Of a stretch of 64,000 bases of DNA, positions 1,765-62,100 are shown in pieces. Where the stretch lies: contig CAWANH010000028.1 in the NCBI GenBank assembly GCA_963783375.1, positions 320,001 to 384,000 of the forward strand, read 5' to 3'. The stretch comes from Candidatus Eiseniibacteriota bacterium (GTDB lineage Bacteria > Eisenbacteria > RBG-16-71-46 > JABDJR01). Position 1 is the first letter of the stretch. Each line of letters begins with the position of its first letter. The notes beneath the pieces are model-generated. The model did no database searches. It had not been told where the DNA came from and saw nothing but the letters and a program-made list of their open reading frames with translations. Made by a program: the position numbers and the translations under genes.

Positions 1765-3464
1765 CACTCTGTCCCCCCCCCGGCGTCGGTTCGGCTCGGC
1801 GCCGGATCCGCGCTCTCGCCCGCCCGCGCCGAGGCTTCGGCGCCGGCCGGCAACTGGTCCTCAAGGGCGGCGGCGGCGCCCTCCCCCATCCGGACCGATC
1901 CCCCCTCGGCGAGCACCCGGGCCCGGGCCGGAGCCTGGGGGGTGCCGACGTTGAACCATCCCGGGTGCGCGGTCTGGGCCGAGGTCTCCGCGGAGTTCCC
2001 GGTCTGGTCGAGCACGTGGAGCACCGAGGCGCTCATGGTGTCCAGGAAGGGTTTGGGATAGATCCCGATCCAGAAGATCAGGACCAGAAGCGGCAACAGG
2101 GTCGCGAACTCGCGCCCGTTCATGTCCTTGAGCTTCTCGTTCTCCGCGTGGGTCACCTTGCCGAACATGACCCGCTGGAACATCCAGAGCATGTAGACCG
2201 CGGCCAGGATGACCCCACTGGCCGCGATCACCCCGTAGACCTTGCTGTGGGCGAACGCTCCCAGGAGGATCAGGAACTCGCCCACGAAGCCGTTGGTCCC
2301 GGGGAGCCCCACCGAGGCCAGGGTCACGATCATGAAACAGGCGGCGAAGAGCGGCATGACCGCGGTGAGGCCGCCGAACTGCTCGATGAGCCGGGTGTGG
2401 CGCCGCTCGTAGATGATCCCCACCAGAAGGAAGAGCGCGCCGGTGGAGAGCCCGTGGTTCACCATCTGGAGGAGCCCGCCCTGAAGCCCCTGCACGTTGA
2501 GCGCGAAGATCCCCAGCATCACGAAGCCCAGATGGCTCACCGAGCTGTAGGCCACCAGCTTCTTGAGATCCGGCTGGACCATGGCCACCAGGGCCCCGTA
2601 GATGATCCCGATCACCGCCAGGGCCATGATCCAGGGAACCGCGGCCTGGGTGGCGTGCGGAAAGAGCGGCAAGCAGAAGCGGATGTAGCCGTAGGTCCCC
2701 ATCTTGAGCAGGACGCCGGCCAGAATGACCGAGCCCGCGGTGGGGGCCTCCACGTGGGCGTCGGGGAGCCAGGTGTGGAACGGAAACAGGGGCACCTTGA
2801 TGGCGAAGGCCAGGGCGTAGGCCGAGAAGAGCAGAAGCTCCTGGATGCGGCTCAGATGGGTGCCGTAGAGCTCCAGGAGATTGAAGGTCAGGACTCCGGT
2901 CTCCGCCTTGTGGGCCAGGGCCAGGAAGATGATGGCCACCAGCATCAACAGGCTACCGAACATCGTGTAGAGGAAGAACTTCACCGCGGCGTAGATCCGC
3001 CGCTGGCCGCCCCACACCCCGATCAGGAAGTACATGGGGATGAGCATGGCCTCCCAGAACACGTAGAAGAAGAAGAGGTCCAGGGCCACGAACACCCCCA
3101 GCATCCCGGTCTCCAGGACGAGGAGGAAGGCGTAGTAGCTCCGGGTCTTCTCGGTGATCGCGCTGAACGAGGCCAGGATGGCGATCGTGCTCAGGAGGGT
3201 GGTCAGGAGCACCAGGAGGAGGCTGATCCCGTCCACCCCCAGGTGATAGCTGATCCCGAACTGAGGGATCCAGCGGGCGATCTCCACGAACTGGAAGTCG
3301 TGCTGCGTCCGGTCGAACCCGAACCAGAGGGTGAGGGAGACCAGGAAGTTGGCCAGCGCGAAGAGGAGCGCGGTCATCCGCTGGGCCTTGGCCGGCATGG
3401 GCACGAGCCAGAGGAAGAGCGCCCCCAGAAGCGGCAGGAAGACGATGATGGATAGGATGGGCAT
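1764..3464 (-). CDS. nuoM: NADH-quinone oxidoreductase subunit M, with a C-terminal low-complexity extension
   Basis: FAIKVPLFPFHTWLPDAHVEAPTAGSVILAGVLLKMG; ATG at 3464 overlaps the nuoL stop (TGATG). Confidence 0.96.
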   Translation of the reverse strand: MPILSIIVFLPLLGALFLWLVPMPAKAQRMTALLFALANFLVSLTLWFGFDRTQHDFQFVEIARWIPQFGISYHLGVDGISLLLVLLTTLLSTIAILASFSAITEKTRSYYAFLLVLETGMLGVFVALDLFFFYVFWEAMLIPMYFLIGVWGGQRRIYAAVKFFLYTMFGSLLMLVAIIFLALAHKAETGVLTFNLLELYGTHLSRIQELLLFSAYALAFAIKVPLFPFHTWLPDAHVEAPTAGSVILAGVLLKMGTYGYIRFCLPLFPHATQAAVPWIMALAVIGIIYGALVAMVQPDLKKLVAYSSVSHLGFVMLGIFALNVQGLQGGLLQMVNHGLSTGALFLLVGIIYERRHTRLIEQFGGLTAVMPLFAACFMIVTLASVGLPGTNGFVGEFLILLGAFAHSKVYGVIAASGVILAAVYMLWMFQRVMFGKVTHAENEKLKDMNGREFATLLPLLVLIFWIGIYPKPFLDTMSASVLHVLDQTGNSAETSAQTAHPGWFNVGTPQAPARARVLAEGGSVRMGEGAAAALEDQLPAGAEASARAGESADPAPSRTDAGGGTE

Positions 3465-53505: not shown

Positions 53506-54878
53506 GACGATTCCTTTCGATGCGATTGCCACTCCCACCAGGCCTGGACGGGAAGGAGGGCGAGAACCGGCACCACTTCCAGGCCCTTCATGAGCATACT
53601 TTCCCGCCAGGGTCCGCCGGCCCGGAAAAGCGGGAGCGGGGCGTAGGCCAGGAACACGGTGATCGTCCAGAGCCACCAGGCGGGCTGGCGGCAGAGCACC
53701 GCGGCGGGAAGGAGCCAGAGCACGTACCAGGGGTGGGCGACCGGCGAGACCAGGAGGAGCGCCCCCACCGTCCAGGCGTAGACCGACGGCAGGGGGCGGC
53801 GGAGCGCGATCGTGGTCAGCCAGACAACCCCGACGATGATCGCCCCCCAGAGCTTGGCCTGGCGGAGCGAGGGCTCGAGGGCGCCCGACTCGCGGAAGAG
53901 AAACGTGAACAGGAAGTCGTTGGCCCGCCACTTGGCCGCGAACACTCCGAGGCTCCCCAGCGCATCCACCCCGTGAAGCTGAAACGGCAGGTAGAGCGCG
54001 GCCACGATAACCGGCAGGAAGGCCCATCGCCACCTGAGCCGCGGGAGCAACGCGGGCAGCGCCACCCAGGGCAGGAACTTCACCAGCCCGGCCAGGGTGA
54101 GCGCGACCCCGCTCGCCGTCCAGCGCCGGGCCGCCCACGCGGCCAGGGCCGCGGCCACCAGGCAGAGACCCACCGAATCGGCGTGCCCGCTCCCCGCGAA
54201 CTCCACCACCACCAGCGGATGCCAGAGGTAGAGCGCGGCCCATGTCCGGGGCCGGCCGGTCGCGGCCAGCGCGCGCACCAGGAACCAACCGGTCCCCAGG
54301 TCGAAGAGCGTCGCCGCCACCTTCCAGGCGGTCACGGAATGGGAGATCGCGGTCACCGCGGCGAAGAGGAGCTGGAGGAGCGGCGGGTAGATGGTGGGGA
54401 TGTTCGAGTACGGGAGGCGCGCCCACAGGGCGTCGCGAAGCGCGGCCAGCTCGGGCGCGTTGGGCGCGTAGCGGTAGGGGTTGATCCCGTGAAGCAGGAC
54501 GTGCCCGTCCCAGAGGTAGCGGTAGAGATCGTCGCTCAGGGTCGGGGGGGTGGTGAGGACCAGCAGCCGGAACACGACCGCCCCCGCCCAGATGAGCGCC
54601 ATCAGGCGCCGTTCCGAGGCCTCGGCGGGCGGGCCGGAGGGCGCGGGCGAAGCGGACGCGAGCGGGACGGGTTCGGGGGGAACGCCGCGGCCGGGTCGAA
54701 GGGAGGCGTGCGGGCCGAACGCGGGGCGCGCCACCCCCCAGGCCGCGGCCAGATAGGCCACCATGAGGAGCGCGTACACCGAAGCGAAGCGAGTGAACTC
54801 GAGGCCCCAGTCGGGTATGGTGAGGGCCGTTCCGTAGAGGAGAACCATGGCCAGACCCGAGGGCAGAAGCCACCACAT
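53502..54878 (-). CDS. GT-C fold glycosyltransferase (GT87/DUF2029-like)
   Basis: LSDDLYRYLWDG, NPY..AP, PTIYPP, EFAGSGHAD and HPWY; start uncertain (54878 or 54848). Confidence 0.85.
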   Translation of the reverse strand: MWWLLPSGLAMVLLYGTALTIPDWGLEFTRFASVYALLMVAYLAAAWGVARPAFGPHASLRPGRGVPPEPVPLASASPAPSGPPAEASERRLMALIWAGAVVFRLLVLTTPPTLSDDLYRYLWDGHVLLHGINPYRYAPNAPELAALRDALWARLPYSNIPTIYPPLLQLLFAAVTAISHSVTAWKVAATLFDLGTGWFLVRALAATGRPRTWAALYLWHPLVVVEFAGSGHADSVGLCLVAAALAAWAARRWTASGVALTLAGLVKFLPWVALPALLPRLRWRWAFLPVIVAALYLPFQLHGVDALGSLGVFAAKWRANDFLFTFLFRESGALEPSLRQAKLWGAIIVGVVWLTTIALRRPLPSVYAWTVGALLLVSPVAHPWYVLWLLPAAVLCRQPAWWLWTITVFLAYAPLPLFRAGGPWRESMLMKGLEVVPVLALLPVQAWWEWQSHRKESS

Positions 54879-54888
54879 CCGGAGAACC

Positions 54889-56425
<1,537 letters not shown>

Positions 56426-56429
<4 letters not shown>

Positions 56430-57325
56430 GCGGGGCCGGTGGACCGGGGGCGGGCGGGTCAGGGGGAGCGGGCTCGGACTCCGGCGGACCCTTCCGCCCG
56501 GGAGCCGGCGGGCCGGAACCCACCGGCACGGCGCGGGATCCGTCCGGGTCGACCGGCCCGGCGACGGAAGGCGCGCGGCCGGCCGGCCCGGCGTTCGGCA
56601 TGTTCGCCAAGCCGCCCCGGCCCGGCGAGGTCAAGACGCGGCTCGTGCCGCCGTTGTCGCCGGAGGGGGCGGCCAGGCTCTACGCGGCGATGCTGGCCGA
56701 CACCGCCGTGGCGCTGGCCGGGGCGGGGGTGGCGTGGGGGGTCGTCTCCACCGACGTCGCAGCCCAGCGGGCGGCGTGGCCCGCGAATGCGCCCGAGCCG
56801 CAGTTCTGGTTGACGCAAACCGGCGCGGATCTCGGGGAGCGTATGTCCAACGCGATGGCGGAACTGATCGGCCGGGGGTATCCCGGTGCGGTGCTGGTGG
56901 GAAGCGACCATCCCGCGGTCGACGCCGAAACCTACCGGCAGGCCGCGGCGCTTCTCGGGTCACCGGCGAGAGGCGGCGTCGCCGCGGAGAAGGGCGCGGC
57001 GGCGGTCTTCGGCCTCGGCCCCGGCGAGGAACTGAACGTCGTGCTCGGACCGACCCACGACGGCGGGTACTACCTGATCGGGCTGACCCGGCCCAACCCC
57101 TCTCTCTTCGGCGGGATCGAGTGGAGCACGCCCAAGGTGCTGGAAGACACGCTGGAGCGTCTGATCGTGATGCGGCTCCAGGCGGCGATGCTCGGGGCCT
57201 GTTGGGACGTGGACCGCCCGGAAGACCTGGAGCGCCTGCGTTCATGGCTGGAGGCCAACGCGGACCGGCCCGAGCCGCCGTGCCATTTCACCCGGGAGGT
57301 GATGGGGTCGCTGCGTCGGGTTTGA
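56426..57325 (+). CDS. TIGR04282/DUF2064 family (CofC-like fold) transferase
   Basis: [42 protein letters not shown] and DVDRPEDL; GTGA overlap with the pyk stop. Confidence 0.88.
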
Positions 57326-57420
57326 GTTCCATCCCGCAGCCCGAGTGCCGGCGGCGCGCCCGGGGGAACACGGCCGGCGCGAGAGCCTGACCCCGACGCG
57401 CACGGGCCTGACCTCGGCGC

Positions 57421-58520
57421 GCGGGTCTTTATTGCGAACATGGCTTCCCCGGGGAAGCACGCCGGAGCTTTATTGCGAACCTGGTGTACCCGGGTGCAAG
57501 TCGGAGGGTCAAGAGGCGAATACCCGGGTACCCACCGCCGGCGCGCGGGCCTTTATTGCGAACATTGCTTCCCCGGGGAAGCACGCCGGAGCTTTATCGC
57601 GAACCTGGTGTACCCGGGTGCAACCCAGCGGTTCGCCATGGACCCGGGACCCCGGCGCGCACCAGGCCTTATTGCGAACATTGCTTCCCCGGGGAAGCAC
57701 GCCGGAGCTTTATTGCGAACCTGGTGTACCCGGGTGCAACCCAGGGGGTGGAGAGGCGAATACCCGGGTACCCGCCGCCGGCGCGCGGGTCTTTATTGCG
57801 AACATTGCTTCCCCGGGGAAGCACGCCGGAGCTTTATTGCGAACCTGGTGTACCCGGGTGCAACCCAGCGGTTCGCCATGGACCCGGGACCCCGGCGCGC
57901 ACCAGGCCTTATTGCGAACATTGCTTCCCCGGGGAAGCACGCCGGAGCTTTATCGCGAACCTGGTGTACCCGGGTGCAACCCAGGGGGTGGAGAGGCGAA
58001 TACCCGGGTACCCGCCGCCGGCGTGCAGGCCTTTATTGCGAACATTGCTTCCCCGGGGAAGCACGCCGGAGCTTTATTGCGAACCTGGTGTACCCGGGTG
58101 CAACCCAGCGGTTCGCCATGGACCCGGGACCCTAGCGCGTGCGGGGGGTCGCCCCGGAATTCACCCGGGTGTGCGCGCGGTTGGGTGCGCGGGGCCGAGC
58201 CCGAAGTCTGCCCGGAGCTGCCAACGCCACCGCGAGCCTTTTTGTTGCGAACCCTTCATTGCGAACATTGCTTCCCCGGGGAAGCACGGCCGGAGCTTTA
58301 TCGCGAACCTGGTGTACCCGGGTGCAACCCAGGGGGTGGAGAGGCGAATACCCGGGTACCCACCGCCGGCACGCGGGTCTTTATTGCGAACATTGCTTCC
58401 CCGGGGAAGCACGCCGGAGCTTTATCGCGAACCTGGTGTACCCGGGTGCAACCCGGCGGATCGCCATGGGCCCGGGACCCCGGCCCGCGCGGGGGGTCGC
58501 CCCGGAATTCACCCGGGTGT
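57421..58520. repeat. Hierarchical tandem array of 240-bp units made of 124- and 116-bp subunits; 8 copies of a 75-bp palindromic core
   Basis: Core CTTTATTGCGAACATTGCTTCCCCGGGGAAGCACGCCGGAGCTTTATYGCGAACCTGGTGTACCCGGGTGCAA; palindrome starts at 57442, 57566, 57682, 57806, 57922, 58046, 58269 and 58394. Confidence 0.95.
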
Positions 58521-58619
58521 TCGCGCGATTGTGGGTGCGGGACCGGCCCCGAACTTCACCCGGGACCCCGGCATGGCACCGCGAAGGAACCCACGCAATG
58601 CGGCAACCGGACGAGCTCT

Positions 58620-58758
58620 GGCCGGCCTTCACCCCCGCCGCCGACTTCACCCGGACTCCAGGCCATCGGGCCGGCCTTCACCCCCGCCGCCGACTTCACC
58701 CGGACTCCAGGCCAGCGGGCCGGCCTTCACCCCCGCCGCCGACTTCACCCGGACTCCA
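58620..58758. repeat. 49-bp tandem repeat, about 3 copies
   Basis: GCCGGCCTTCACCCCCGCCGCCGACTTCACCCGGACTCCA at 58621, 58670 and 58719. Confidence 0.9.
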
Positions 58759-59129
58759 CCACGGGCCGGCGGAACCCCCACCTCGACTTCACCCGGACCC
58801 CGGGCCGGCGGCCCGATTCCTGGCGCCACCACGGCCCCGGGAAACGCCGCCGCCGCCCCTCGACGCCCGCCCCCCCCGGCTACCCCGTTCTCCCACGCCC
58901 AACACCCGGCCCCTCAGTCCCCACCCCCGACCCCCCGGGCCCCTGGTCGCGCCCCCCCCCACGCCCCCGCCTGCCCCCGCCGGTCTCAAAAGAGCCTCAA
59001 TCTCTTGCGCCATAATATTTTATCCGCACTCACCCCGGCGGACCGTGTTGCCCCCAACCCCTCCGAGCCGGTATGATCTTCTGTCTTCGCGTCGGCCGCC
59101 ACCCTCGGCCCTCGGAACCCAATATCATC

Positions 59130-60512
59130 ATGAAACCCACCATCCTCCCGCGCGCCGAACACACCATCTCCCGCAAGCTCATCGACCCCGATGCGTTGAA
59201 GGTGATGTACCGGCTCCTGAACGCCGGTCACCGGGCCTACCTGGTGGGAGGGGGGGTGCGCGATCTGCTCCTCGGGCGGACCCCCAAGGACTACGACGTG
59301 GGCACCGACGCCCACCCCCACCAGATCCGGAAGCTCTTCCGGAACTGCCGCCTGGTCGGCCGGCGCTTCCGCCTCGCCCACATCCATTTCGGCGACAAGA
59401 TCATCGAGGTCTCGACCTTCCGCCGGCGGGCCGAATTCGACGAGAGCGAGAACGGCGACCGCCTCATCCGCTCCGACAACACCTTCGGCACCCCGGAGGA
59501 GGACGCGGTCCGGCGGGACTTCACCATCAACGGGCTCTTCTACGACCTGGAGACCTTCTCGGTCCTGGACTACGTGGGGGGGATCGACGATCTGAACCGG
59601 CGGATCATCCGCAGCATCGGCGACTCCAACGAGCGCATCCCCGAGGATCCCGTCCGCATCCTCCGCGCCATCAAGTTCGGCGCCCGGCTGGGTTTCGACA
59701 TCGATCCCGAGCTCTGGGCGGCCATGATCCGCTTCGCCGCCGACATCCACAAGTGCGCCAAGGCCAGGGTGCTGGAGGAGATCTACCGGCTGCTCCGGGG
59801 CGGCGCCGCCGGGGCCTCGTTCCAGCTCATCGAGGAGTCCGGGCTCATGCAGGAGCTCCTCCCCGAGGTCCACGAATACCTCCAGGACCAGAGCGAGGGG
59901 AGGCGCGACCGGAACCGCCTGTTCTGGCAGTACCTGAACATCCTGGACGAACTCAAGAAGGACGAGGTGGAGCTCTCCAACGCGCTCCTCCTGGGATCGA
60001 TCGCCGTCCACCTCACCGGGGTCGCGGTGGGGCAGGCGGACGACGTCCAACCCGGAGACCTCAACAAGCGCGTGGACGAGCTCAGCCACGAGTGGGTCTC
60101 GCGGCTCGGGGTAGCCCGCCGCGACCGGGAGCGCATGGCCCACATGCTCCGATCCCAGCCCCGCTTCACCCGCCCGCGGGGCCGCCGCTTCCGGCCCCGG
60201 AGCTTCGTGACCAAGCACTACTACCCCGACGCCGAGGCGCTGTTCGCCCTGGGAGTGCGAGCCACCGGGAAGGAACTCGACACCCTGTCCCGCTGGCAGG
60301 CGGTGCGGGAAGAGGCCGGCGGGGTGATCGAGGAAGCGACCCCCGAGTCGGGAGAACGCTCCCGGCGCCACCGCCGCCGGAGACGCCCCTCGAGCGCCGC
60401 CGCCGCCCCCGCCGAGGCCCCGGCAAACGAATCGAAGAGCGAGGGAGAGAAGAAGTCGAGCCGGAACCGCCGCCGCCGTCGACGCCGCCATCGCCGCCCC
60501 GCCACGTCCTAG
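59130..60512 (+). CDS. pcnB: Poly(A) polymerase I
   Basis: VGGGVRDLL, DYD, PAP-specific LVGRRFRLAHIHF, RRDFTIN, EDPVR and an Arg-rich tail. Confidence 0.92.
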   Translation: MKPTILPRAEHTISRKLIDPDALKVMYRLLNAGHRAYLVGGGVRDLLLGRTPKDYDVGTDAHPHQIRKLFRNCRLVGRRFRLAHIHFGDKIIEVSTFRRRAEFDESENGDRLIRSDNTFGTPEEDAVRRDFTINGLFYDLETFSVLDYVGGIDDLNRRIIRSIGDSNERIPEDPVRILRAIKFGARLGFDIDPELWAAMIRFAADIHKCAKARVLEEIYRLLRGGAAGASFQLIEESGLMQELLPEVHEYLQDQSEGRRDRNRLFWQYLNILDELKKDEVELSNALLLGSIAVHLTGVAVGQADDVQPGDLNKRVDELSHEWVSRLGVARRDRERMAHMLRSQPRFTRPRGRRFRPRSFVTKHYYPDAEALFALGVRATGKELDTLSRWQAVREEAGGVIEEATPESGERSRRHRRRRRPSSAAAAPAEAPANESKSEGEKKSSRNRRRRRRRHRRPATS

Positions 60513-60517
60513 GCCGC

Positions 60518-60632
60518 CCCACGACCCGCCGCGACTATCCCATGACCGAGCCCGACTACCCCACGACCCGCCGCGACCATCCCATGGCCGAGCCCGACTA
60601 CCCCATGACCGAGCCCGACTACCCCACGGCCG
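60518..60632. repeat. 21-bp tandem repeat (5+ copies, two variants) between convergent genes
   Basis: CCCACGACCCGCCGCGACYAT and CCCATGRCCGAGCCCGACTAC at 60518, 60539, 60560, 60581 and 60602. Confidence 0.88.
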
Positions 60633-62100
60633 ACAGCGTCTGGTCGATCAGCCCCGGCGGAAACACGCCGCCGGCCTCGAGCGCCGCGCGGTGATGAGCC
60701 AGGGCGGAAGCGGTCTGGGCCGCGCTCCTGGGGACCGCGGGCGCGGAACCCTTCCGGGCGGCCTCGGACCCGGATGCGGTGCGCTTCAATAGATCATCCA
60801 GGTCCTCGGTCTCACGCCCCAAAACCAGGGCCTGGGCGATCCCGGCCAGGAGAAGATGCGGGTGGGCGGAGCCGTCGGGAAGGCGGAACTCGATGGTCGG
60901 GGGAGCGACCGGCCGGCCGCCGTCGGTGAACGCGGTGATGGGGAGCCGGATCAGGGCCTGGCGGTCGAAGCGCCCCCAGACCACGGCGCTCGGCGCCTCC
61001 TTCCCCTGCCGGAGCCGGAGAAAGGAGCCCTTCCCCCGGTTCCCGAAGGCCATGAGCGCTCCCCCCATCTGGGCCAACCCGGCGATCAGCCACTGGGCGG
61101 AAGGGGCCAGGGAGCCGTCCGCGGCCACGCCCCCCGCGTGATCGCCGTTCACCACCGGGGACATGTGGAAGTGCAGCCCGTTCCCCGGATGACCTTCCTT
61201 CACGATCGGGTCGAAGGAACAGCGGTAGCCGTGGCGCCGGGCCAGGTTCTGGATCACCCAGCGGGTGAGGACCAGGGCGTCCGCCGCCCGCGGCAACGGC
61301 GCCAGTCCCAGCTCGATCTCGTGCTGTTCCCAGACCGTGCCGTCCTGCTCGCGACCGTCGATCACCCCGACCTCGCTGTGGCCGTACTTGACCGGCACCC
61401 CGATCTCGCCCAGGGCGACCAGGGCCTCCCGGCGGAGGGCTTCGCCGAACACGAAGGGCGCGGTGGCATGGTAGCCGCGGTCCTCGGGCCGGGCCGCGGT
61501 GTCCCCCGCCCCCACGTCCGCGCCCAGGAAGTACTCCACCTCGCCCAGGGCCCAGAGATCCACCCCGCACTCGGCCAGGACCCGTGCGTGGGCCTTGCGC
61601 ACCACGGTGTCCGGCGACTCGGGGAGCGGCTCCCCGTCCCGCCCGACGTGGCCGGAGAGGACGGCCAGGGTGGGAACCGGCGCGAAGGGATCGACGAACG
61701 CGGTCTGAAGCCGGGGGCGGAGCATGATGTCCGAAGCCCCGCTCTTGAGTCCGGCGAAGAGGCTCGATCCGTCGGCGCGTTCGCCTCCGGTCAGGATGTC
61801 CGTCAGATGGGCCTCGCCGGCCGGGACGAAGTCCAGGGTCTTGAGCCACCCGTCGCCCCCCACGTGCATCAGGCTCACCAGGCGGATTTCGTTCTCCTGG
61901 ACGAAGCGCACCAGGTCGTCGACCGTCCACTCGGTGCGCGGCTTGCCGAGCGCCCGTTCCAGGCGGCCGGCGGGAAGGTAACCCGAGGCCGGCCGGGACA
62001 CGGTTCCGCCGGCGGACGTCCTGAGGGCGTCCGCGTCGGGCTGAACCGCCACCGGGGTTTCTTCGTGCACGGTCTTTCCGGTCGGATCGAGAGTCTTCAT
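60619..62100 (-). CDS. Glutamine synthetase family protein
   Basis: DGSSLF, GEVEYF, HSEVG, QHEIE, GNGLHFH, RL..GKEAP, ALIRLP and IEFRLPD. Confidence 0.85.
   Translation of the reverse strand: MKTLDPTGKTVHEETPVAVQPDADALRTSAGGTVSRPASGYLPAGRLERALGKPRTEWTVDDLVRFVQENEIRLVSLMHVGGDGWLKTLDFVPAGEAHLTDILTGGERADGSSLFAGLKSGASDIMLRPRLQTAFVDPFAPVPTLAVLSGHVGRDGEPLPESPDTVVRKAHARVLAECGVDLWALGEVEYFLGADVGAGDTAARPEDRGYHATAPFVFGEALRREALVALGEIGVPVKYGHSEVGVIDGREQDGTVWEQHEIELGLAPLPRAADALVLTRWVIQNLARRHGYRCSFDPIVKEGHPGNGLHFHMSPVVNGDHAGGVAADGSLAPSAQWLIAGLAQMGGALMAFGNRGKGSFLRLRQGKEAPSAVVWGRFDRQALIRLPITAFTDGGRPVAPPTIEFRLPDGSAHPHLLLAGIAQALVLGRETEDLDDLLKRTASGSEAARKGSAPAVPRSAAQTASALAHHRAALEAGGVFPPGLIDQTLSAVG

Follow-up and report, generated by a model that had tools for sequence, protein, structure and literature searches.

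The window analysed is a stretch of 64,000 nucleotides, G000:C28:320001-384000, from the source genome (G000, 97% complete). A gene of the DUF2064 family (56600..57325, forward strand) is followed, ~100 bp past its stop codon, by a higher-order repeat array (57427..58570, forward strand). The next gene encodes a pcnB-like poly(A) polymerase (59130..60512, forward strand), a neighbour outside the palindrome-nuclease system described below, and its promoter-like site, TTGCCC-18-TATGAT (59048..59077, forward strand), lies downstream of the array. A lone degenerate site (57353..57370, no strand assigned) in the gap that separates the array from the DUF2064 stop codon was also present in the sister species, and a 49-bp tandem repeat of 3.9 copies with the half-site-like sequence ACTTCACCCGGA was detected by TRF at 58620..58806 (forward strand). 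Two other features were observed in the surroundings. The pyruvate kinase gene (54847-56429) is split over three reading frames and has a G-rich repeat at 55933-56039; the frame breaks are probably long-read errors, or possibly mark a broken gene. A 21/42-bp tandem repeat between pcnB and a glutamine synthetase-like gene (60517-60633) is unrelated to the array.

Analysis of the array showed eight cores of ~76 bp each, as assembled, starting at 57429, 57553, 57669, 57793, 57909, 58033, 58256 and 58381, with alternating linkers A and B, one interruption and a tail. Core-to-core spacing was 124, 116, 124, 116, 124, 223 and 125 bp. Each core consists of two monomers, 41-42 bp apart. The array holds 16 tagged monomers and 26 CCCGGG centres (57448 to 58559), and sites related to those of the array run on to 58570. 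In the type A monomer (for example 57551..57584, forward strand), the tag CTTTATTGCGAAC is followed by 2 nt and a perfect 18-bp palindrome with TGCTTC arms. The type B monomer (for example 57592..57625, forward strand) has the same tag and a hybrid palindrome, GGTGTA-CCCGGG-TGCAAC, whose arm types are also present at HNH nuclease genes of G000 (contigs C1, C22 and C3) and of the related genome G001. Linker A (for example 57745..57792, forward strand) carries GCGAATA immediately 5′ of a TACCCGGGTA site, and linker B (for example 57629..57668, forward strand) carries TTCGC and a degenerate CCCGGG site. An extended B linker (58109..58255, forward strand) breaks the period, and its first part is found again after core 8.

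A first-pass annotation of the window had placed GCGAA boxes at 57434, 57475, 57516, 57558 and 57599, eight cores with alternating linkers, and an inverted box, TTCGC, in linker B. All of these were borne out, with the inverted box at 57632, 57872 and 58112; in the last linker B, ATCGC stands in its place. The annotation had also described an exact 240-bp period, which holds for length (TRF period 240 × 3.0, score 1317) but not for sequence, the units being 95-98% identical (230, 235 and 228 of 240 positions). Its monomers of ~41 bp do not extend throughout, as palindrome centres are in fact spaced 41/34/49 and 41/30/45, and TGTACCCGGGTGCA, listed as a palindrome, is an imperfect one. The possibility had been raised that the array was an assembly artefact. 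We consider the array to be real, because its units differ from one another, a sister-species contig (L026) has an identical array start at the matching position after the matching gene, and contigs from independent runs contain array parts, though none spans the whole array. In one such run (X1), 10 differences were found in 239 nt of the array piece, compared with 0 in the flanking gene pieces. In agreement with the annotation, the array is not a CRISPR, since linkers recur and cas1 was not found in G000 (control positive).

Nor is the array unique, with 22 further loci in G000 and its start shared by the sister species. The repeated element is a 34-bp monomer comprising an AT-rich GCGAAC tag, CTTTATYGCGAAC, two bases, and an 18-bp CCCGGG-centred palindrome. 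With a monomer matrix and a cut-off score of at least 18 (the reversed genome, used as a control, gave nothing above 12), 87 copies were identified at 23 loci, none of them inside called genes (own caller, ~3,715-3,716 genes). The pcnB-locus array, with 16 of the 87 copies, is the largest of the 23 clusters. Nine of the loci are in convergent gaps, compared with 89 of 1,311 gaps (p = 1 × 10−5). Monomers are oriented on a single strand in 20 of the 23 clusters and are nearly all head-to-tail; no replichore orientation bias of clusters was found. Other loci contain tandem arrays with periods of 41-42, 137, 156, 270 and 278 bp. CCCGGG itself has an observed/expected ratio of 0.93 genome-wide and is not over-represented, which argues against a HIP-like or methylation-driven bias. 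Self-comparison of the genome gave no prominent IS-sized multicopy repeat, and most small contigs duplicate parts of large ones. Likeness to LexA boxes and to integron attC sites was considered and dropped, as spacing or the generally known consensus did not fit.

The annotation had interpreted 41-42 bp as four helical turns of DNA and hence as phasing. Across the family, 29 distinct monomer spacings were found, with no 10.5-bp phase (R = 0.16, p ~0.46). The 41-42 bp spacing is the commonest (19 of 61 spacings, at five loci), and its recurrence probably reflects one copied dimer. The arms of the palindrome covary (4.3 of 6 pairs, against 3.1), and some ten sites combine two arm types as hybrids. 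Homology between loci stops at monomer edges, in what is a partly circular test. The array is likely to be one local expansion of the dispersed 18-bp palindrome family.

Several other features were observed at the clusters. Two clusters (L062:1361-2855 and L067:2072-3462) lie directly 3′ of Y-family DNA polymerase (IMS) genes, a placement seen post hoc that makes a link to damage-induced transcription possible. A second hairpin-rich element of ~150 bp (L074, ~3300-3460) was found in 10 of the 23 clusters and, outside them, at a further 9 loci, of which 4 are near a weaker site; it is probably a passenger module. In 11 of the 87 monomers, at 6 loci (for example L060, L069, L070 and L072), the tag forms one arm of a second palindrome of ~29 bp, similar to an AT-rich tract upstream of HNH promoters. 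At L073 (G000:C29:1086688-1087255), tandem repeats of a tRNA-Ser 3′ end (period ~108) adjoin the cluster, and similar repeats are found near other tRNA-Ser genes. A gene at L060:5059-6927, close to one of the clusters, matches the thiol-activated cytolysin family (PF01289) and a laminin G domain.

Of the 150 genes around clusters and related repeats, 99 were scanned against Pfam, and two proved to be HNH genes. By tblastn, five close HNH copies were identified at four loci in G000 (C28, C29, C3 and C1/C22), the C1 and C22 copies being counted once because they are 97% identical and both at contig ends. PF01844 (HNH) scored above cut-off in proteins P0001 (C29), P0002 (C3) and P0123 (C28). At two of the four HNH loci, a full monomer precedes the start codon, by 143 and 169 nt. 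A monomer lies within 250 nt upstream of the start of 8 of 3,716 genes, 2 of which are HNH genes (Fisher p = 2 × 10−5), a linkage that was spotted first and submitted to the Fisher test afterwards. Upstream of the C28 copy is an array of six monomers, and the 3′ tail of its coding sequence contains hybrid sites that rank 1 and 3 among 9,590 CCCGGG sites outside clusters. The other copies have GGTGTA-type sites upstream and internally, and the C3 copy also has them downstream. Internal sites of the G000 HNH genes are not the dominant TGCTTC palindrome, save for the hybrids in the C28 tail. From these sequence relationships, the type A monomer is likely to be a recognition site of the nuclease. 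The nuclease gene nearest to the pcnB-locus array is more than ~170 kb away. Two more distant HNH paralogues (G000:C29:17990-20584 and C28, ~883-885 kb) are longer, with open frames of 830-865 aa, gave two weak matches to the N-terminal domain, and have no clear palindromes.

In the predicted model of the nuclease, the N-terminal domain is helical and is joined by a disordered linker to a zinc ribbon, which is followed by an HNH domain. Searches of the PDB by sequence matched only the HNH part. The N-terminal domain alone was modelled with a pLDDT of 93.7. When its structure was compared with 48,161 chains, the top four were Spo0J, ParB and KorB (Z 6.3-7.7), including Spo0J (Z 7.7, rmsd 2.7, 90 residues aligned), the ParB DNA-binding domain (Z 7.7, rmsd 3.6, 100 aligned) and KorB (Z 6.5, rmsd 6.3). 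The top rows in Foldseek were all ParB/Noc/KorB, with weak E-values above 0.1, and hhalign gave no significant match to the one ParB sequence of the host (probability 0.1). Among 103 homologues, Pfam matched HNH in 103, DUF222 in 21 and HTH_ParB in 15, and the HNH residues are invariant or nearly so in all 103 proteins. DUF222 also came out top among Atlas clusters, where it was assigned to 42% and 21% of members with a score of 0.97; G000's own proteins gave no match to DUF222 (PF02720). The N-terminal domain is DUF222-like and is predicted to adopt a ParB/Noc/KorB DNA-binding fold, with modest scores (Z under 8).

Of 61 related genomes, two (G000 and G002) contain the tagged monomer. At the pcnB locus, the array is missing in G001, G003 and G006. 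A related array, of 97-bp dimers, lies between parS sites in G001. This region (L052, G001:C5:395600-396400), upstream of parA, contains two tandem arrays akin to the G000 repeats, and a 97-bp repeat beside the array is related to the ~150-bp hairpin-rich element. A pattern scan of genomes of all species returned nine loci in the sister species and, in Actinomadura, a single isolated match, while a scan of metagenomes returned one isolated match, apparently due to chance, and a scan of viral contigs none. Seven of the nine sister-species loci map beside corresponding G000 clusters. Two loci were observed to differ between the species (L068 and L067, compared against L024 and L023). At one, G000 has an extra segment of 3.4 kb, where the sister scaffold has an N gap. 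At the other, the cluster is inverted and has a different neighbour. In both cases the change in gene content or order falls exactly at the cluster.

The N-terminal domain is more widespread, with profile matches in 40 of the 61 genomes and up to 19 matches in each. To examine sites inside the genes, a fixed window of 300 nt upstream of the zinc-ribbon codons was used, in 52 gene copies whose two domains are spaced as expected; loci missing either match were left out, as were five distant genomes. An internal site with at least 8 of 9 pairs was found in 17 of the 52 genes, compared with 0.3 expected from G000 coding DNA. Because the genomes are related, p-values overstate the significance. The other 35 genes, including most of those in G001 and all four copies in G013, have no strong site in this 300-nt window. 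Fourteen loci have an internal site as well as a flanking one; here, arm agreement averaged 8.3 of 12 within a locus versus 4.4 across genomes, although agreement was poor at three of the 14. Arms differ by lineage, with both sides of the palindrome altered.

Six sites, four read off the genes of other lineages and two taken from the G000 repeats, were counted across the 61 genomes. Each peaks in its own genome or close kin. The G020 site occurs 17 times in G020, 10 times in G006 (once inside a G006 HNH gene) and at most twice elsewhere; the G034 site 20 times in G034 and once elsewhere; the G009 site 10 times in G009, 7 and 5 times in two others and at most three times in the rest, with some spill-over; and the G027/G038 site 5 and 2 times, and at most once elsewhere. 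Arm type A of the array was counted 33 times in G000, 3 times in G002 and 0 times in the other 59 genomes, and the GTKYA arm 24 times in G000, 22 in G001, 9 in G002 and 6 in G013. Twenty short stretches that contain a site were taken from G020, G034 and G001, and 19 of them gave no HNH match. One of the G034 stretches is a 51-bp tandem array. The orphan sites of G020 and G034 have only the palindrome in common, with no shared tag. The GCGAAC tag was seen in no genome but G000 and G002, apart from a partial occurrence in one G001 array, and HNH loci of other species did not show it.

Gene copies were compared for signs of mobility. Copies in G001 are 83-94% identical and some in G003 97-99%, with differing flanks. 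In seven G001 copies, the shared homology mostly extends from approximately −190 (the upstream site) to approximately +490 to +590 (the downstream sites). Homology ends near palindromes in G001, and not clearly so in G003 or G013. For 11 of 33 copies in relatives, the flanking genes are less than 500 bp apart in G000, which is empty there; no family palindrome was found by eye at these 11 empty sites. At one candidate footprint, C28:1281551 against L131 of G002, the flanks do not align, and no clean filled/empty pair was found among the compared loci. One HNH copy is orthologous in G000, G001 and G003, with arms that differ per species. This old copy indicates that not every copy moves. Near-identical copies at unrelated loci, together with empty orthologous sites, suggest that the nuclease gene behaves as a mobile element. 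As a separate observation, an IS110 transposase in G001 starts at the palindrome that lies downstream of an HNH gene (L092, G001:C2:177722-178141), which indicates that such palindromes attract other elements. L127 is a truncated start of the same IS110 element and has no Pfam match.

We consider it rather probable that the palindromes are recognition sites of the nuclease, multiplied by cut-and-repair and local duplication. The observations behind this reading are dispersal, intergenic location, linkage between site and gene, lineage-specific change of arms in step with the gene's own sites, positions of the gene that differ between species, and the predicted fold. Two HTH domains would bind the two half-sites on double-stranded DNA, and the tethered HNH domain would then nick or cut near the site. 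Repair by recombination between sites could copy the gene, or non-coding modules, to new places; the same repair may seed orphan sites, create hybrid sites and drive tandem duplication, after which ordinary unequal exchange would build the 240-bp level. At the pcnB locus, a monomer may have given rise to the 41-bp dimer core, then to a core with linker A or B, then to three copies of the 240-bp unit, and finally to a partial duplication. This reading would make the array a non-autonomous by-product, not a host organiser. Against a cutting enzyme, the host would have to survive a nuclease with ~90 chromosomal sites.

ParB domains bind their palindrome with two-fold symmetry, and the Noc site (NBS) is CCCGGG-centred, according to the accessible part of PMC7383237. 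In our own comparison with the NBS sequence given there, 10 of the 14 central bases of arm type A match. The nuclease would share with ParB-parS, Noc-NBS and KorB-operator pairs the predicted DNA-binding fold and the use of two domains per palindrome. It differs from ParB and Noc in having HNH in place of a CTPase domain and in its 18-bp site, and the host parS and parB are separate. The palindromes are likely to be binding sites of this predicted domain. The annotation had suggested a phased protein-binding array; the sites are probably protein-binding, for a predicted ParB/Noc-like binder, while the helical phase did not stand. Its iteron-, centromere- or organiser-like locus was not upheld: the host centromere, made up of parAB and three parS-like sites, is located at C28:767-770 kb, which is 390 kb away from the array (377 kb). 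ParB_N had a single match in G000, the single parB, and no second paralogue with a CTPase domain was found.

The protein may instead be a domesticated, non-cutting binder, acting as a self-repressor or as a Noc-like nucleoid factor, with arrays arising by slippage and unequal recombination and perhaps kept as loading sites. The position of sites 140-200 nt ahead of the promoter region of the gene itself would suit such a role, as would the retention of clusters at corresponding places in the sister species and the recurrence of 41-42 bp. Noc sites avoid the terminus, and the 0-1.08 Mb region of C29, which spans the skew-predicted terminus, contains 0 clusters (post hoc p ~0.009, in a genome that is in pieces). 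Contigs C1 and C3 have no cluster either. However, near-invariant HNH residues and the lack of a ParB CTPase domain argue against a binder alone, and array content is species-specific, varies between strains and is absent from this locus in three relatives. We regard this alternative as unlikely.

REP families have a HUH transposase as their mover, or none known, and are characterised by a 5′ tag, GTAG or CGTC, extragenic or convergent placement, and tandem clusters with flanking DNA, as described in the available sections of PMC3733652. As far as the accessible portions of PMC3733652 and PMC2817692 go, the present family shares with REP/BIME-RAYT systems short, tagged, dispersed extragenic palindromes in mosaic, lineage-specific clusters, enrichment between convergent genes, and a cognate nuclease gene that is itself flanked by sites. 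The 34-bp monomer is also within the REP size range (20-40 bp, extragenic, many copies), and the array is mosaic in the manner of BIMEs, as the annotation had offered as an alternative. It is conceivable that the palindromes are classical REPs, spread as single-stranded hairpins by a lost or undetected HUH transposase, with HNH genes merely inserting there, as some IS do; the IS110 element of G001 provides a parallel, and the 240-nt unit folds more stably than shuffled sequences (z = −3.2). Several findings make this quite improbable. A link to a RAYT gene, suggested earlier as a check, was not found: Y1_Tnp (PF01797) gave no match in G000 and five relatives (controls positive), nor among the 99 cluster-flanking proteins. 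IS110 was not found in G000 (control positive), and an IS91 Y2 transposase gave no match there, with a control that was likewise blank. The array tag is neither GTAG nor CGTC, the tags given in the part of PMC3733652 available, and the monomers are nearly all head-to-tail where REP/BIME units mostly alternate or are inverted. Among palindrome mismatches in 36 distinct sites, 16 were G-T, 12 A-C and 33 other, with no strand bias of G-T wobbles, as would be expected of double-stranded sites. The partner of a RAYT system is a Y1/HUH enzyme, whereas here it is a multicopy HTH-HNH protein with a site also inside its gene. Targeting would leave unexplained why coding-sequence sites have arms matched by lineage to the flanks, and the orphan sites of G020 and G034, which have no tag in common, do not fit a tagged REP. 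Spread was probably by cut-and-repair, and not by a known transposase.

A functional structured RNA or transcription element, whether serving pcnB as a leader or the pyruvate kinase-DUF2064 unit as a terminator or 3′ UTR stabiliser, is very improbable: the array does follow a co-oriented gene closely, convergent gaps are favoured, the unit folds well and a terminator-like hairpin occurs at 57410, but low folding energy is expected for any repeated palindrome, this hairpin is the only one (1 versus a shuffle mean of 2.4), an Rfam search of the array gave no match at E 1, arrays across the family run with co-directional flanking genes in 5 cases and opposite to them in 3, and the multi-hairpin leader of poly(A) polymerase proposed earlier conflicts with a pcnB promoter-like site downstream of the array, similar hexamers being present in G001 and G003, which both lack the array there.

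Returning to recognition sites spread by a nuclease, two further systems are comparable. Free-standing HNH homing endonucleases have a DNA-binding domain, a linker and an HNH domain in a modular arrangement and spread by cut-and-repair. The present protein shares this plan, and cut-and-repair is the route proposed here; it differs in that there is no intron or intein, in its many unrelated loci, and in a presumed site that is intact at both ends as well as inside. DUF222-HNH genes of the '13E12 repeat' (REP13E12) are likewise multicopy, stand-alone and linked to rearrangement, and in the accessible text of PMC13157036 they are associated with recombination hot spots and induction by DNA damage. 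In the DUF222-HNH literature, no link to a cognate palindrome, to dispersed arrays or to a ParB-type fold was found. Within the literature covered on HNH/DUF222/13E12 genes, ParB-like proteins and palindromic repeats, which included few subscription papers and no supplements, the system was not found described. CTPase-HNH fusions are mentioned among ParB fusions in the available part of 10.1101/2025.10.10.680097, with an architecture that differs from that of the nuclease here.

More tentatively, and with rather less than even confidence, we suggest that the gene may be a mobile element without a transposase, in which a ParB/Noc-type HTH coupled to HNH binds and cuts an 18-bp palindrome found at the borders of its own gene and within it, moves via host repair, seeds orphan sites, and builds REP/BIME-like arrays that rearrange their neighbours. 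The array alone is a species-level by-product, and the interest is in the system behind it. DUF222-HNH genes are common and have no assigned mechanism, and this locus ties extragenic palindromes to their kin. The lineage-specific sites amount to a natural set of variants in which changes of specificity in a ParB-type fold can be followed, and a nuclease with an 18-bp site could be a useful tool. If true, the proposal would mean that extragenic palindromes have a second engine, independent of the first, and it would supply the large DUF222-HNH family with a mechanism.
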